This document shows positions 20,845-40,282 of a stretch of 64,000 nucleotides of DNA, one piece after another. The notes under the pieces were generated by a model. The model made no database searches and had not been told where the DNA came from. It saw nothing but the letters and a program-made list of their open reading frames with translations. A program made the translations under genes and the position numbers. Source of the stretch: a virus; the IMG/VR virus record IMGVR_UViG_3300045988_130119, positions 21,023 to 85,022 of that record; one strand, written 5' to 3'. The number at the start of each line of letters is the position of its first letter. The stretch's first letter is position 1.

Positions 20845-21156
20845 TTAATCCTTGATTTGTTGAGAACAAGTTCTCATTTTATAAGCAAAATGTCTTTCTA
20901 TAAAATTATCGCAATCATAACTAAATATAGCACAAGACAAATGGTGATCGTCATATAACAATTCTTCTATTTTACGATTCGCTTGAATGCTATTCCCAGT
21001 CATTTGTTTTGAATTGAAACGTATTGCTTTTCCGTCATATTCTTCAAATGCATTACAATATGTATCCCAATCTTCTACTTCTATAATTCTTGATTGATGA
21101 TCATAAATTCTATTGTCATTATCGACAAGTAGGTTCGTTTCGATTACTTCTACCAT
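20845..21156 (-). CDS. hypothetical protein, paralog of 24363..24638
   Basis: Shared ETNL.D...DHQSR...DW..YC.A...YDG..I.F.SK...IEEL.YD.HHL blocks. Confidence 0.4.
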   Translation of the reverse strand: MVEVIETNLLVDNDNRIYDHQSRIIEVEDWDTYCNAFEEYDGKAIRFNSKQMTGNSIQANRKIEELLYDDHHLSCAIFSYDCDNFIERHFAYKMRTCSQQIKD

Positions 21157-26262: not shown

Positions 26263-26352
26263 GTGCTCATTCTCCTTATAATTACATTTATTACACTTTA
26301 CTACTGAATTTATAAGCCCTCATTTGAAAGTGTGAAAGTCAGCCCAGGCTGA

Positions 26353-26422
26353 TAAGTTATACGCGAATCGAACGTGTTTCTTCCTATTTATATAGGATAT
26401 TCTACCAATGAACTAATAACTT
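26353..26422 (-). tRNA. tRNA-like gene with non-canonical anticodon arm (6-bp stem TCCTAT/ATAGGA, 4-nt loop)
   Basis: Perfect 7-bp acceptor AAGTTAT/ATAACTT, D-arm GTTC-ATTGGTA-GAAT, T-arm ACACG-TTCGATT-CGCGT; no 5-bp/7-nt anticodon arm. Confidence 0.45.
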
Positions 26423-26472
26423 ACTAACACGTTTTGTGAAAGAAAGAAGGTGCAATTATTTTCTGCGTCAAG

Positions 26473-26556
26473 TTGACTGTACAGGACTCGAACCTGTGCC
26501 TCTCCATATGTGCGCTTTTCATATGTACGCTCTCCCAATTGTTGAGCTAACAGTCA
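26473..26556 (-). tRNA. tRNA-like gene, 84 nt, anticodon position occupied by CATATG stem with 9-nt loop AAAAGCGCA
   Basis: Perfect acceptor TGACTGT/ACAGTCA, U8A9, D-arm GCTC-AACAATTGGGA-GAGC, T-arm ACAGG-TTCGAGT-CCTGT; exhaustive search finds no canonical anticodon arm. Confidence 0.45.
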
Positions 26557-26700
26557 AACCAGTATGATAAAGAATTCTCTGTTGTTGAATTGTGTACTTT
26601 AATTCAGCAAATGCAAGCGTTGGAGCTTATGTTTATTTTTCTTTTACAACTTCTTGCATAAATCTCTATTTTTGCTCAAGAAATAGTTCTTTCAGAGAAA

Positions 26701-26757
26701 GGATGGATGGTGGATTCGAACCACCTTTATAAGATTCATTATCTTGAAGGTGCATCC
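26701..26757 (-). tRNA. tRNA 3'-half fragment (T-arm plus acceptor strand), 5' half degenerate
   Basis: GGTGG-TTCGAAT-CCACC followed by ATCCATC; only about 33 nt of poorly pairing sequence upstream. Confidence 0.3.
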
Positions 26758-26851
26758 TCTTAATAACTTCACTTACAACCACAGCGTTCCTATTCATACT
26801 AGAATTTGTCATGCACAACAAAATTCGTTCCGTTGCTGTCATCCACCAAAA

Positions 26852-26936
26852 CACGGACTCTCGGAGTTGAACCGAGTTTAAACCTTGTTATGGCTTACGA
26901 TTTAATCGTAGCTCTTACCAGTTGAGCTAAGTCCGT
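26852..26936 (-). tRNA. tRNA-like gene, 85 nt, extra 13-nt hairpin (ACGAT-TAA-ATCGT) inserted between D-arm and anticodon arm; putative anticodon AAC
   Basis: Perfect acceptor ACGGACT/AGTCCGT, D-arm GCTC-AACTGGTAA-GAGC, anticodon-like arm AAGCC-ATAACAA-GGTTT, T-arm CTCGG-TTCAACT-CCGAG. Confidence 0.45.
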
Positions 26937-27088
26937 AAATATCTATACAAACTACTTTCACTCGTATGAGTATATTAGTTATGGTAATATATTCTCTCAC
27001 CGACAGCTACCTCTGTTTTTCATCTGTATAGAAAAGCTACTAATGATATTAAGCATCCATAACATCTTAACTGACCACTTTCACTGAA

Positions 27089-27159
27089 CTAGGGATAGGA
27101 GAATCGGACTCCTATTCTGAGAATCAAAATCTCATGTGTTACCATTACACTAATCCCCA
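27089..27159 (-). tRNA. tRNA-Gln (anticodon TTG)
   Basis: Canonical cloverleaf: acceptor TGGGGAT/ATCCCTA, D-arm GTGT-AATGGTA-ACAC, anticodon arm TGAGA-TTTTGAT-TCTCA, T-arm AGGAG-TCCGATT-CTCCT; 71 nt, no encoded CCA. Confidence 0.75.
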
Positions 27160-27437
27160 TTGGATTTCCACAATGACCTTTCATAACATTGTGGCAATTT
27201 GAGCGATTTCCATTTCTGTTTCATAAGAATTTTTCAGCATTTCATTCTTTACTTACTTTTTTCACTCAAAAACATATATCTTTTCAGTTTATGAGCTATC
27301 TTATAACGGTACTATGTCTAGGTCTACTCCAGAATCTTGTACTTCGATTCCTTTTATTTTACGTTCATTTAAGGCTTTTGTTCCAATTCTAATTATTGCT
27401 CACCATACAGGCTGAACGACAGGTTTTTACTTATAAG

Positions 27438-27508
27438 CTAGGCTGTCCAGATTCGAACTGGATCTGCAAGAGTCAAATTCTTGTTTGCTACCATTACAAC
27501 ACAGCCCA
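27438..27508 (-). tRNA. tRNA with TTG anticodon (Gln-like, second copy)
   Basis: Acceptor TGGGCTG/CAGCCTA, D-arm TTGT-AATGGTA-GCAA, anticodon arm CAAGA-ATTTGAC-TCTTG, T-arm TCCAG-TTCGAAT-CTGGA; 71 nt. Confidence 0.7.
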
Positions 27509-27892
27509 TTATTGCAACTTTTATTAGGCAAGTTGCCAACCTTATATAATTAATTCACCATTTGCCAGCTTCGCAGACAACTTACAGCCAAGTACAATCA
27601 TACTGAAAACTGTTAATCGAAGATTTTGTAAAACTTTATATCTTTACTATTTACTATTTAAACTTTACACAAAACATAAACTTTGAACTTTGAGCTTTAC
27701 TACTTGAGATTTAAGCTTTACTCTTTACAGTCATAATTTGCATTATAATAAGTAGAAAGACTTACTTTTTATGTTTTATTTATACTCAAGTTTCTTTATT
27801 GTTTTGATTCAGACTATACTTGCAAAAGTCTGAATGATTGTAGTTTTAAGTTTTCAGCAAACAGTGAAATAATTTTCTATTTATATATTCTC
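27509..27892. repeat. repeat-rich non-coding region (iteron-like direct repeats and inverted repeats)
   Basis: TTTACTATTTACTATTTA, repeated CTTTAC/CTTTGA units, IRs GCAACTT...AAGTTGC and TCAGACT...AGTCTGA. Confidence 0.4.
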
Positions 27893-35989: not shown

Positions 35990-36517
35990 CTTACACCAGT
36001 GCAGCTTTGAACTTTTTCAATGCCATACTTACAGCAGATGCTTTCATATTCATAATTTCTGCAACCTCATTATTTGTATATCCACGATATTTGAGAGCAA
36101 CAATATTCTTAACTTGGTCTTTCAGCTTGTCATATTCTTTCTGAAACTTAGCCTTGAATATGTATTCTCTCTCTCAATATTCTCAGAAGAAACCATTAAT
36201 AGAGTTTCACTAATAGGGCTATCATAATTTTCATCGAATGCTTCCATAGAATATACTGTGTCATGTCTAAGATGCTTTGCTGCATTAATCTTTCTCAAAT
36301 AATTACTCACTTCATTTCCCATACATCTGTATGCAAACGTTGAAAATTTTGTTTTATCTGAGTCATAATTTAATGCAGCTTTGCACAAACCAATAGAAAG
36401 CAATCCACTGAACTCTTCTATATCCAACTTGTGATCTTTTGCGTATTTGTATGTAAGATTATAATTTTCTTCTACCAGACTCTTTTGTTTTTCATTAAGC
36501 ATTTCTATACCTCTCAA
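35990..36517 (-). pseudogene. sigma-70-family factor split by frameshift in a (GA)4 tract: region 2 in 36122..36517, region 4 HTH in another frame 35990..36160
   Basis: Region 2 KFSTFAYRCMGNEVSNYLRK; downstream +2 frame encodes ALKYRGYTNNEVAEIMNMKASAVSMALKKFKAAL (region 4); frames meet at GAGAGAGAG. Confidence 0.6.
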
Positions 36518-36563
36518 TCATTATTTGTATATTTACTTATTCTCCAAAAGAATCTGAACAAAA

Positions 36564-36758
36564 TTATAAAACTACAAATACAACATCTTTCATTGTTGAT
36601 GGGATTGTAAAAACATTCTTCCTCTGTTTTATTTCGTATACTTCTTTTCCATCTTCATTAGTTACTACTTTTGCGGTAAAGATTTTACCATCCTTAATTT
36701 TTACAGAATCATTGTTCTGATCCTTAAAAATAACATCTTTAATAAATCTAATTGTCAT
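36564..36758 (-). CDS. hypothetical protein
   Basis: ORF track. Confidence 0.3.
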   Translation of the reverse strand: MTIRFIKDVIFKDQNNDSVKIKDGKIFTAKVVTNEDGKEVYEIKQRKNVFTIPSTMKDVVFVVL

Positions 36759-36798
36759 AATTTTTTTATTTGTCTCCTTTAAAGTATGTTAAATATCT

Positions 36799-37017
36799 CT
36801 ATTCAGAACTTAAAATAAGTAAAGTTCCACTACCCATCGCACCATTACTTCTTGTAGATAATGTCGGAGCAAAATCTTTTACCTCAATACCATTGTAAAC
36901 ATCGAAATATTTTGGCAGATAACCATTTATCTCATAAAATTTTTTATATTTATCATCGACCCATTTACTTCTTGTAATTTTAAAATCATCAATTTGAATA
37001 GGATTTTCTTCATTCAT
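36799..37017 (-). CDS. hypothetical protein
   Basis: ORF track. Confidence 0.3.
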   Translation of the reverse strand: MNEENPIQIDDFKITRSKWVDDKYKKFYEINGYLPKYFDVYNGIEVKDFAPTLSTRSNGAMGSGTLLILSSE

Positions 37018-37154
37018 AATTTATTCCTCCATATTTTCCACAACTTTTAAACCTATTCTTTCCGATCGTAAACATGGTGAATAATCTTCATAAATTCTCA
37101 CATCACGGTTCTTGTGAAAATCTTCGATAATAACTTTTCTGTCACAAGCAGAAT

Positions 37155-38765
37155 TTAATCTGCCTGTGAATTTGTAAAATTTCCAGAATTAATTCCTTTG
37201 TACAATCTATCCAATGCTACTTCAAAAGCCCCAATACCTGAGAAAAAACTACTTAATCTCAAATCATCAAAAAGATATGGCATAGCCTTATACAGCTCAA
37301 CAAATATGTAATATAAAACATCAACGACAATTGAGTTACCGGCTTGTTTATATAATTGTGAATTTGAAATACCTATATTATGTGCTGCATTGAAATTTTC
37401 ATCTGAAAATCCCATAAGTCTAAAGCATTCTTTTGGAGTAAGCTTTCTAACTCGTAAATTATTTGTTACTGGTAAAATAGCTGTTTTAAAACCTTCAGGT
37501 CTTGTTATTAATGTTGGCGAGCATCCTGATTTGTTTACTCTTTTATTAAATGCGTCAATTGTATCTCCATATTCTGCATCAGAATCATCAAAGGTATCTA
37601 ACGCTTGTCTAAAAAATCTTTCTTTAGGCTTGTTTTCAATAGATTCAATTCTGCACACACCTGTTTCTTTGGCAGTTAAAGTTGGACAAATATTACCACC
37701 ATCTTGTACTCTTCCACGTCTAGTTTTAGAATCTGGATATGATAAATCTGCAACACCACCAATTTCACATTCTATGTAACCTTTTTTAGTTGCTTGACGA
37801 ATGGCAATCTTATTACCTTCACCTTTATTAGTCGTGAGAGTTGGTGCTAAACCATTCTCATCAAACACATTTCCATTCATACCTTTACCAGATGGATTTA
37901 CATTACCTAATTGTACAATCTTAGGCGTATTACCATGACCAGAAGTATGTGTTGGCGAAATTCCATCTGTCGATACAACAACTCCATCCTGAGATGAATT
38001 TAATCTGCCAATCTGCTTTATCATATTACCGTTTGTTTGCTTTAAACCATTTTTATTATTTAGATTAGTAAGAAAATTCCGGACTTTATTTTCTGAAATA
38101 TAAAATTTTTCATCAACAACATCTTCCAATATATCTTTCAATCTGATGCCATTGTCGAATGGTTCTGGGAATTTAAATTTACCGTTGTCTAAATCTTTCT
38201 TGATAAAAATCAGATACACACGTTCTCTATTCTGTGGAATACCATAATTCTTTGCATTAAGTACCTTCCAATACACGTTATATCCATATTCTTCTAATTC
38301 ATCAGTGAACAATTTAAATGTTGTGTCTTTAAACTGTCTACCTACAATATTTTTTACATTCTCATAAATTCCAAAATTCGGTTTGTTTGCTCTGATGACT
38401 CGCAAATATTCAACAAGCAATGATGATCTTGTCTTTTCAATATTTTCACTGCTGCAATTTGGACACTTAGCACGTTCAGACCAATGTACTGTCAATGGAT
38501 TATATTCATGTCCACATTCTTTGCAAGTCCAAACAGAACCTTTTTGTTTACCTGCTACAGAAAAATCCTGACATGGGCTACCTCCACAAATCATATTAAA
38601 TGGTTTAAGCTTTGTTTCATCAACCTTTGTAATATCACCAAGATTCAATGATTCATCTACACCATGAATTGCACAGTATGATTTTGTTGCATACTTATCA
38701 AACTCACAGAAGTTTACCGGTTCCCAATCTTTTTTAAATGAATTTATTCTTTTATCAGTATTCAT
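37155..38765 (-). CDS. C5 cytosine DNA methyltransferase with permuted motif order (motif I at C-terminus) and internal zinc ribbon
   Basis: Motif IV GGSPCQDFS, VI YENVKN, VIII QNRERV, IX/X TPKECFRLMGF...YKQAGNSIVV, then C-terminal FFSGIGAFEVAL (motif I); CKECG...CPNC insert. Confidence 0.7.
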   Translation of the reverse strand: MNTDKRINSFKKDWEPVNFCEFDKYATKSYCAIHGVDESLNLGDITKVDETKLKPFNMICGGSPCQDFSVAGKQKGSVWTCKECGHEYNPLTVHWSERAKCPNCSSENIEKTRSSLLVEYLRVIRANKPNFGIYENVKNIVGRQFKDTTFKLFTDELEEYGYNVYWKVLNAKNYGIPQNRERVYLIFIKKDLDNGKFKFPEPFDNGIRLKDILEDVVDEKFYISENKVRNFLTNLNNKNGLKQTNGNMIKQIGRLNSSQDGVVVSTDGISPTHTSGHGNTPKIVQLGNVNPSGKGMNGNVFDENGLAPTLTTNKGEGNKIAIRQATKKGYIECEIGGVADLSYPDSKTRRGRVQDGGNICPTLTAKETGVCRIESIENKPKERFFRQALDTFDDSDAEYGDTIDAFNKRVNKSGCSPTLITRPEGFKTAILPVTNNLRVRKLTPKECFRLMGFSDENFNAAHNIGISNSQLYKQAGNSIVVDVLYYIFVELYKAMPYLFDDLRLSSFFSGIGAFEVALDRLYKGINSGNFTNSQAD

Positions 38766-38909
38766 AAAAAATCCCTTGTTTATAGGGGATTGCGCAATCT
38801 CTTTATTCTAGAACTTACCTGTTTTTACCTTTCTTAATATTAAAATTCTTTGCTTTTCTAGGTATTTGCAACTACCTTGTGAAAGCATAAATTCTTCACT
38901 ATATTTTCA

Positions 38910-39836
38910 CTATTTCTTCAATCCACTTAATATCCATTCTACAGTTGGTTCATTCCAACCATTGCCCATCATAGAATATCTTTTTGTATCACTCATTTTT
39001 CTTCCATTAAATGCTATGTCTGTATATCCATCCGGCAATCCTTGTAATCTTTCATATTCAACAGGTGTCAATTTTCGTGGTCTGCCATGATCCATGACAG
39101 ATTTAATATGATATCCACCATTCACACAGGTCAAAGTGCAACACTTAAACTCAGGATTATAAATACGTCTATTCATCTCCATCGTATTAACCTTTAACTC
39201 TGCACAAACACGTTTGTTCATGTCGATGATTTCAAAATCTTTTTTATAGAAATATTTCTCATTCACATTATTCTCCATTACATCTTTCAAAACTAATGGA
39301 GATTCTTCCGGTAATTCATCCAATGGTATATTTGTCCAATAATATCTTTCTCTCGACTGTGCGCCAAAAATTGCAGAGTTAATAAGCAAAGGATCAACTC
39401 CAATACACCTAGTCATTGTATTTAAATCCTCTTCTCTACTCGGTATTACATTTTCAAACATGAAATATTTTGGCTGAATTGCCTTAAGACATTCGATGGC
39501 TTTAAAGAAAATACCTGATTTGCCATCTAACCCATTGTTGACTTGTTTATCTTCTATTCTGACTTTGCTCAAACTTTGGCAACAAGTTCCTGCTAATAAC
39601 AAGTCATATCCTTTGAATTGTTCAAAATCCGCTTCATATAAATCTCCATGATGTACCACAAACGGAAAATGGTACTGAGAAACTGCAATTGCTTCAGGCA
39701 GAATCTCATATGTATGATACTCTTTCACCGGAATATCCAATTGTTGTAATGCATATAATCCAGTTTCTACACCACCACAGAGACTTAACACTCTAAGTCC
39801 ATCAGTGGAAGTTTTTCTTTTATTTGTATTGCTCAA
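38910..39836 (-). CDS. C5 cytosine DNA methyltransferase (canonical order)
   Basis: Motif I LSLCGGVETG, IV GTCCQSLS, VI FENV, VIII QSRERYYW, X MMGNGWN. Confidence 0.8.
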   Translation of the reverse strand: MSNTNKRKTSTDGLRVLSLCGGVETGLYALQQLDIPVKEYHTYEILPEAIAVSQYHFPFVVHHGDLYEADFEQFKGYDLLLAGTCCQSLSKVRIEDKQVNNGLDGKSGIFFKAIECLKAIQPKYFMFENVIPSREEDLNTMTRCIGVDPLLINSAIFGAQSRERYYWTNIPLDELPEESPLVLKDVMENNVNEKYFYKKDFEIIDMNKRVCAELKVNTMEMNRRIYNPEFKCCTLTCVNGGYHIKSVMDHGRPRKLTPVEYERLQGLPDGYTDIAFNGRKMSDTKRYSMMGNGWNEPTVEWILSGLKK

Positions 39837-39970
39837 ATTGCCTTAATTTCAAGGCTTGTACAAGCATGTTATCTAGAATTACTCTTATTTCCTTTCATAT
39901 GTAGTTAATTATCTTCTTCTTTCACGCAGCATTCATGACTACCGAATGAAAGAAAAACTTCATTTAAGTT

Positions 39971-40282
39971 TTAGAAGTCATAGTCCTGCTCTTCAGGTTC
40001 TTTTAATTTCATACCAAGAATACAACCAATTTCATATGCAGCGTTTGATATACCACAATCATATCCATCACAAAATACATCAGATTCATTCCCAGAAGAT
40101 CTCATTTCTGTATACCCACACGCCTTTGGACTATAATTATTCTTTACCCATTCAATCAATTTATTTTCAATTTCTTTATCCATTTGTTTATTCTCTCCTT
40201 CTCTATCTAACCGCCACAAACATAATCTATTTTCTACATTTAACACTGCCGCCGGCATCAATATCTCCTGATACATTTCCAC
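39971..40282 (-). CDS. hypothetical protein, paralog of 233..490
   Basis: shared AAYEIGCILGM block. Confidence 0.45.
   Translation of the reverse strand: MEMYQEILMPAAVLNVENRLCLWRLDREGENKQMDKEIENKLIEWVKNNYSPKACGYTEMRSSGNESDVFCDGYDCGISNAAYEIGCILGMKLKEPEEQDYDF

Follow-up and report, generated by a model that had tools for sequence, protein, structure and literature searches.

Which enzyme is encoded by a gene that ends where a C5-methyltransferase (C5-MTase) should begin, and why does a further reading frame stay open behind its stop codon? The question is raised by a 536-amino-acid (aa) open reading frame (ORF) in a 64,000-nt stretch of viral DNA (IMG/VR record IMGVR_UViG_3300045988_130119, positions 21,023 to 85,022), referred to here as the window and numbered from its first nucleotide. 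A preliminary description had placed motif I of this C5-MTase at its C-terminus and had taken the gene to be caught mid-way through circular permutation by duplication. The analysis presented here points instead to a permuted, multispecific-type C5-MTase whose mRNA probably makes a second isoform, carrying an extra target-recognition domain (TRD), by -1 programmed frameshifting.

Motif I of the methyltransferase follows motif X

The ORF matches PF00145 in Pfam (E 4.6e-59) and belongs to this C5-MTase family, as motifs I (FxGxG), IV (PC), VI (ENV), VIII (QxRxR), IX and X could all be located and are invariant across the family. Its order is II-IV-zinc ribbon-VI-VIII-four TRDs-IX-X-I, with the following parts:

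37155..38765, minus strand: circularly permuted C5-MTase ORF, 536 aa, zero frame
38688..38714, minus strand: motif II, NFCEFDKYA (residues 18-26), the earliest conserved motif in the protein
38559..38585, minus strand: motif IV, GGSPCQDFS (residues 61-69), with the catalytic Cys65
38454..38525, minus strand: zinc ribbon CxxC...CxxC (residues 81-104), in the catalytic loop between motifs IV and VI
Residues 134-139: motif VI
Residues 178-183: motif VIII
37458..38093, minus strand: variable region of four tandem TRD-like modules, with xPTLx at residues 270, 307, 360 and 416
37323..37448, minus strand: motifs IX (RKLTPKECFRLMGF, residues 440-453) and X (QLYKQAGNSIVV, residues 470-481)
37203..37256, minus strand: motif I (LSSFFSGIGAFEVALDRL, residues 504-521), at the C-terminus

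The canonical linear order from I to X is not kept, motif I standing after motif X and none before motif II. When the protein was compared with the PDB sequences by phmmer, M.HhaI aligned in displaced blocks: its residues 38-92 (motifs II-IV) with query residues 19-76, residues 94-197 (VI-VIII) with 110-214, residues 268-318 (IX-X) with 436-491, and motif I (residues 11-30) with 501-520. The permuted plant enzyme DRM2 aligned unbroken over IX-X-I (query 438-526). No motif I was present within the N-terminus or upstream of it in any frame. In a profile hidden Markov model comparison, the PF00145 score rose by 16 bits, from 200.9 to 216.7, once residues 493-524 were put at the N-terminus in an un-permuted construct. 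Because of the phmmer alignments, the missing N-terminal motif I and the gain in Pfam score, we regard the order II-IV-VI-VIII-TRD-IX-X-I as real, and the motif order given in the preliminary description therefore holds. The C-terminal motif I comprises a predicted strand (residues 502-507), a glycine-rich FSGIG loop and a predicted helix (residues 513-527) in the AlphaFold2 (AF2) model described below. A glycine-rich loop of the FSGIG type is the S-adenosylmethionine (AdoMet)-binding motif of C5-MTases.

The permuted order is shared by a large family

The preliminary description had explained this order by a tandem-duplication intermediate, in which the first copy borrows motif I of a decaying second copy and the DNA behind the stop codon is a frameshifted pseudogene remnant. 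Against this, the same architecture is kept in hundreds of proteins at 42-96% identity. In a collection of 5.8 billion proteins, all of the 120 best matches (66-96% identity, full coverage) are permuted alike, C-terminal tail included, and 113 of them share a tail of the form ...INSGNFxNPQx[DE] before the stop. The order recurs in 80 IMG/VR viral loci, mostly on contigs of 80-200 kb, and in prophages of Dorea, Blautia, Coprococcus, Lacrimispora, Enterocloster, Faecalimonas and other Lachnospiraceae (42-63% identity). When proteins were clustered at 50% identity, the 150 best-matching representatives included at least 26 complete proteins with the permuted order and, to judge by their termini, about 20 further fragments, and a search seeded with a Dorea prophage protein returned 94 permuted and 0 canonical proteins. 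In an alignment of 82 sequences, residues S506, F508, G510, G512, A513, F514 and E515 of motif I are invariant; the majority of motif II residues are likewise invariant, and the remainder are conserved in at least 90% of sequences. Judged by these comparisons, the permuted architecture is an old and stable design, not an intermediate. Megablast of positions 36500-40000 against GenBank phages gave no match.

Three relatives (P0101, P0108 and P0114) have an intein, with Hint domains, that interrupts motif IV precisely at its catalytic cysteine (GGSP-C...HN-CQDFS).

A two-domain fold with a zinc ribbon and an internal TRD array

The AF2 model was built from the 82-sequence alignment, which spans two clades and replaced an unusable alignment of 45 close relatives (predicted local distance difference test (pLDDT) 44.8). 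It has a predicted template modelling score (pTM) of 0.71, with pLDDT above 90 in the core and 92-97 over residues 440-530, the IX-X-I segment. Its top fold match in the PDB by Foldseek is M.HhaI (E 2.8e-16, template modelling score 0.66), and model and match together display the two-domain MTase fold.

In the zinc ribbon, C81, C84, C101 and C104 are invariant, and the region gives weak Pfam Zn-ribbon/HypA matches. The ribbon is likewise found in canonical-order relatives bearing the 3' cassette described in the next section.

The tandem TRD modules span about residues 225-436, between motifs VIII and IX. The tblastn matches of this internal array are MTase genes of Firmicutes phages, and close relatives of the protein range from 504 to 619 aa, with variable regions of differing length. 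The presence of several tandem TRDs between VIII and IX is the hallmark of the SPR type, and the four tandem xPTLx modules therefore mark the protein as a multispecific-type enzyme. A functional phage C5-MTase of multispecific type is the best-supported reading of the gene, and comparative evidence backs its circular permutation strongly.

A slippery heptamer and a covarying hairpin end the gene

The last eight codons of the MTase are occupied by a cassette, behind which a second frame remains open:

37176-37182, minus strand: slippery heptamer A_AAT_TTT, the proposed -1 shift site; zero frame GGA AAT TTT, G-N-F
37142-37169, minus strand: 11-bp hairpin, TCACAGGCAGA / TCTGCTTGTGA, 6 nt past the heptamer
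37021..37176, minus strand: -1 frame ORF without a start codon (YKFTGRLNSACDRKVIIEDFHKNRDVRIYEDYSPCLRSERIGLKVVENMEE, then stop), linker plus one TRD module

The hairpin arms lie at 37159-37169 and 37142-37152, and the 6-nt loop between them, UUAAAU, contains the zero-frame stop (37155-37157). In the window, its folding energy is -17.5 kcal/mol (z -5.4 against shuffled sequences). The same arrangement, consisting of A_AAT_TTT, 6 nt and then a hairpin of 7-12 bp with the zero-frame stop in its loop, is found across loci, and the heptamer is in frame in 64 of 70 unique junctions. At these 70 junctions, the -1 frame remains open past the stop for a median of 73 codons, as against 5 in the +1 frame and 10.6 expected from base composition. 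Upstream of the stop, the -1 frame is open over only 8-13 codons, and it lacks a start codon.

The nucleotides of the heptamer are conserved beyond the needs of the protein. It is retained at synonymous sites in 54 of the 56 extension-bearing ORFs, compared with 25% expected from codon usage, whereas an Asn codon three positions upstream of it varies freely (AAC 33, AAT 23). The A that precedes AAT is supplied by five codon contexts, GGA, GAA, AGA, GTA and TTA, encoding Gly, Glu, Arg, Val and Leu. The stem is constrained as a stem: 96.9% of cells are paired, compared with 37-50% after a shift of the 3' partners by 1-3 columns, and compensatory changes occur at 5 stem pairs. At the same distance from the heptamer, loci L046, L094, L103 and L125 have unrelated stems (GGAGAAG/CTTCTCC, CTGCCGA/TCGGCAG, GCCGTCAG/CTGACGGC and CCGCCAATGAAT/ATTTGTTGGCGG), and loci without an extension lack the hairpin altogether. 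Such a conserved and covarying cassette speaks against a decaying duplication at this junction. The junction brings together what is looked for in a -1 frameshift site, namely a conserved X_XXY_YYZ heptamer, a covarying stem 5-9 nt downstream and a start-less -1 ORF under selection. In Escherichia coli, heptamers of the form H_HH.U_UU.Y rank with the most efficient ones for -1 shifting (PMC4066793). Rfam gave no match at the hairpin at the gathering threshold.

Other ways of reaching the second frame fit less well. Ribosome hopping and reinitiation after the stop are set aside, as the junction has no matching take-off and landing codons and no start codon. A terminator is unlikely, with no U-run after the stem, as is transcriptional slippage, for which A3T4 is too short. 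Stop-codon reassignment, which some gut phages use, is irrelevant to an extension that sits in another frame.

The L063/L080 subclade has no A_AAT_TTT, yet a hairpin whose loop includes the stop is present. Its extension lies in the -1 frame in L063 (GCC CCA CCC) and in frame in L080, which has a run of eight C, a pattern that hints at switching through a homopolymer tract.

The post-stop frame encodes a TRD module

The preliminary description had noted correctly that a frame stays open behind the stop, calling it +2; it is the -1 frame, which opens two codons before GGA AAT TTT and, counted from the shift site at 37176, runs to a TAA at 37021-37023. The predicted trans-frame product is 581 aa long. 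The further statement, that CDRKVIIEDFHKNRDVRIYEDY aligns with the protein's own motif II segment, did not survive a direct comparison: BLASTP of the post-stop peptide against its own protein returned zero alignments even at E <= 100. The peptide (...VIIEDFHKNRDVRIYEDYSPCLRSERIGLKV...) instead resembles TRD modules of relatives, of the type IDD..Y.GY.PTLRSQRSGLKV / IDD..GYTPTLRSQRSGLKV, so that the supposed frameshifted remnant of motif II proves to be a TRD module behind a conserved slippery site and hairpin. On the duplication model, MTase-derived sequence in another frame after motif I is in keeping, and a TRD straight after motif I is the leftover expected from a second copy with II-VIII deleted; absent similarity to motif II, and a -1 ORF open about seven times longer than expected and under purifying selection, speak against that model.

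A second module lies just beyond the first:

36799..37017, minus strand: 72-aa ORF with its own GGAGG and ATG, encoding a second TRD module (DFxxTRSKWV...FAPTLSTRSNG)

This ORF is in the frame of the extension, from which one TAA separates it. It is missing from the otherwise syntenic locus L001, and its DNA is 82-83% identical to the -1 extensions of L013 and L023. Neither the extension peptides nor the 72-aa ORF alone matched Pfam or PHROGs, and both are identified as TRDs because their tblastn and BLASTP matches fall inside MTases. By tblastn, extension modules match the variable region of the multispecific MTases of Bacillus phages H2 and rho11s. Only the IDD..PTLRS and AMRGR types were found in both positions, and most extension types are absent from the internal TRD arrays examined.

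Selection on the extension was measured on module types other than that of the window. In one module type, pairwise codon differences in the -1 frame were 474 synonymous and 218 nonsynonymous, compared with 59/672 and 37/703 in the other frames, and the variable sites at codon positions 1, 2 and 3 numbered 13, 8 and 32. For those module types, the pattern shows purifying selection on the -1 ORF extension as read from codon substitutions.

The extension is fused, split off or attached to canonical enzymes in relatives

In L057, L080, L093 and L126 the extension is fused in frame, in L057 through a 5-nt deletion. With an in-frame example as the query, many small proteins built as IX-X-I-linker-TRD were retrieved. 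Ten were inspected (P0121, P0122, P0124, P0126, P0130, P0151, P0159, P0163, P0196 and P0221), P0130 having 49 member sequences. Their loci encode a split enzyme, with a [II-VIII] gene, sometimes a stand-alone TRD ORF, and then [IX-X-I-TRD]. In some in-frame and split relatives, the module after motif I appears to be the sole intact TRD.

The same cassette and module types also end canonical-order MTases (L129 and L131-L133). The cassette is therefore not tied to the permutation, and its occurrence with an extension on non-permuted MTases is a further point against a duplication intermediate.

Loci L085-L088, from a related clade, have an MTase in fragments: [II-VIII], pieces of TRD that lie in shifted frames, and [IX-X-I-TRD]; the broken TRD frames may reflect decay or further recoding. 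The MTase of these loci is flanked by an MT-A70 N6-MTase and an AdoMet synthetase gene, and in L085-L086 only, an RNA ligase and a nucleotidyltransferase of the poly(A)-polymerase/CCA-adding type were seen.

A proposed mechanism and its alternatives

In the mechanism that we propose, the chain would start at motif II, and the C-terminal motif I would fold back to complete the AdoMet-binding Rossmann fold. Most ribosomes would stop at the zero-frame stop and release the 536-aa enzyme, while a fraction would slip back one base at A_AAU_UUU and produce the 581-aa isoform, in which a linker of roughly 15-20 residues would tether one more TRD after motif I. With this additional module, the enzyme would gain a target sequence or have one altered, and the protection of phage DNA from host restriction would thereby widen. 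That a share of the ribosomes shifts frame in this gene is inferred from the sequence pattern at the junction. Recognition of DNA by a tethered TRD outside the VIII-IX position is suggested by the in-frame and split relatives. A wider version of the proposal, to which we give an even chance, extends it to a lineage of gut Firmicutes phage and prophage C5-MTases, permuted and canonical, that would frameshift to make a set fraction of their product with exchangeable tethered TRDs; the modules would be tethered by a linker after motif I or after motif X, outside VIII-IX.

Several observations weigh against programmed frameshifting to a functional extra TRD. We know of no precedent for a functional TRD outside the VIII-IX region, and the AF2 model is silent on where the extra module would dock. 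Split genes and stand-alone TRD ORFs in relatives, like the own-start 72-aa ORF of the window, indicate that TRD modules may be made or used otherwise. Extensions lie in the -1 frame without the heptamer in L051 (AAC), L063, L117 and L119, so plain frameshift mutations do arise at this site and are tolerated. The extension is dispensable, since many members of the family go without it. The loci are kin, so the conservation counts overstate their independence, and the synonymous excess in the extension could partly stem from recombination with expressed copies. Finally, modules are clearly exchanged at the junction, and the conserved patch may have a role in recombination, which could coexist with frameshifting.

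That exchange is the core of the strongest alternative, in which the downstream TRDs are silent or separately expressed cassettes swapped by recombination, and the hairpin is a recombination junction or another RNA or DNA signal. Closely related MTase bodies do carry differing modules right after the same junction of roughly 45 nt, one additional module, equipped with a Shine-Dalgarno sequence (SD) and an ATG, is inserted in the window when it is compared with L001, and relatives have stand-alone TRD ORFs and split genes. Yet nearly all extensions are start-less and lie specifically in the -1 frame, and recombination has no need of a slippery heptamer that is kept at its synonymous sites and stands six bases ahead of a stem, or of compensatory changes or replacement of whole stems at a fixed distance. 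Silent cassettes, moreover, would show no synonymous excess confined to one frame, and in-frame fusions exist. We therefore consider this explanation unlikely, though it deserves more weight than the two that follow.

Less credible still is a reading in which a long-standing inactivating mutation, or else a phase-variable indel, was carried along as the clade spread and left a once in-frame extension dead or switched by DNA slippage. This would account for the in-frame versions in relatives, for the 5-nt deletion by which L057 differs, for the C-run that separates L080 from L063, and for the shift of L117 at a G-run relative to its in-frame relatives. It does not account for a junction that, in the window as in most loci, is free of homopolymer and repeat tracts, for an ORF that remains intact across sequences down to 52% identity that have exchanged modules, for purifying selection on the extension, or for a hairpin and a heptamer that are each under their own constraint; we give it a slim chance.

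The duplication intermediate is the least probable of all and, as a description of the present state, largely refuted, even though duplication followed by truncation is an accepted route to permuted MTases (PMC5944983) and a tandem-copy origin is possible as history.

Neighbouring features

Two further features lie next to the gene:

38910..39836, minus strand: canonical-order C5-MTase, 308 aa, DNMT3-like; a neighbour, not part of the permuted gene
38770..38791, minus strand: 6-bp hairpin AATCCC/GGGATT, with the likely SD (AGGGA) in its 3' arm, just upstream of the ATG of the permuted MTase

The canonical-order neighbour had been recognised at these coordinates before. Its best solved-structure matches are the catalytic domains of DNMT3B and DNMT3A (E 1e-20), well ahead of bacterial enzymes, and its motif IV reads TCCQ rather than PCQ. 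A hairpin over the SD of the permuted gene, also described earlier, is present, with a stem of 6 bp at 38770-38791 instead of the 7 bp at 38766..38790 first given. Hairpins of other sequence occur at the same place in other clades (L002 and L046; ACCTCT/AGAGGT and GCCTTGT/ACAAGGC), and a hairpin that buries the SD suggests that the MTase is controlled at translation.

The second gene downstream of the MTase (36122-36517, minus strand) encodes a small sigma-factor-like protein (phrog_351, E 3.6e-13) and is kept in the syntenic locus L001. Elsewhere in the window, a RAGATH-27 RNA (27785-27868, minus strand) scoring 78.5 bits, just over the gathering score, lies beside a tRNA cluster (26351-27508, minus strand) that comprises two tRNA-Gln(TTG), one 84-nt tRNA-like match and one ARAGORN call with a two-base anticodon.

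Comparison with known enzymes and recoding signals

The closest known design is that of the multispecific C5-MTases of Bacillus phages SPR, phi3T, rho11s, SPbeta and H2, which have the canonical order I-X. Like them, the window enzyme is phage-encoded and combines one catalytic core with tandem TRDs between VIII and IX; unlike them, it has a C-terminal motif I, a zinc ribbon in the catalytic loop and extra TRDs outside VIII-IX. To our knowledge, no frameshift-dependent extension occurs in the Bacillus phage enzymes.

Two other arrangements share single traits with the window enzyme. The plant enzyme DRM2, which aligns over IX-X-I, is permuted too; its cut lies between motifs V and VI. The two subunits of the split enzyme M.AquI keep the canonical order. 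Relatives L085-L088 resemble M.AquI in being divided, as [II-VIII] and [IX-X-I-TRD], whereas the window enzyme is a single chain, with the core and IX-X on one 536-aa ORF and not on separate polypeptides.

Natural permuted C5-MTases known by 2018 were all of the M.BssHII kind, whose N-terminus falls between VIII and the TRD, and a REBASE survey of that year found type H alone in nature (PMC5944983). Type H (M.BssHII, M.Alw26I, M2.Eco31I, M.Esp3I and M2.BsaI) shares with the window enzyme a motif X that precedes motif I, and its permuted enzymes are functional. The window enzyme does not belong to this type: it is cut between I and II (II...X-I), its N-terminus lies before motif II, and VIII-TRD-IX are contiguous. 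A nearer counterpart comes from engineering, as cp35M.MpeI and cp33M.SssI were active in vivo ('++') (PMC5944983). We take both to be cut between motifs I and II, judging by their numbering, as the text of that paper does not state it. The II...X-I topology thus has a probable engineered equivalent of demonstrated activity, with the difference that cp35M.MpeI and cp33M.SssI are laboratory constructs, poorly soluble and monospecific.

The 3' cassette resembles the -1 frameshift cassettes of IS3/IS911 orfAB, dnaX and the phage tail chaperone G/GT in its X_XXY_YYZ heptamer, short spacer and downstream hairpin, and in an overlapping start-less -1 ORF that would yield two products sharing their N-terminal part. 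It differs from these bacterial cassettes in its heptamer, A_AAU_UUU in place of A_AAA_AAG or G_GGA_AAG, and in that the gene is a DNA MTase and the addition a specificity module. A comprehensive recoding review has no DNA MTase case in its lists (PMC5009743). In the open-access literature, we found no report of a natural II...X-I topology, of a frameshift in a DNA MTase, or of the two combined, as a II...X-I permutation with a candidate recoding signal, in DNA methyltransferases.

Natural permutation of C5-MTases was thought to have a single topology, to which the present family adds a second, abundant in human-gut Lachnospiraceae phages. If the proposed frameshifting is true, the cassette would be the first reported recoding signal in a DNA MTase, as far as we have found, and its conserved junction would at the same time be the place where specificity cassettes are exchanged. 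A TRD would then not need to sit in the canonical loop, and a target-recognition module could work on a flexible tether, which would bear on how TRDs are swapped at the active site of multispecific enzymes and on the design of programmable methyltransferases. For the phage, such an arrangement would be a compact way to diversify protection from host restriction, with recoding tuning the repertoire of specificities.

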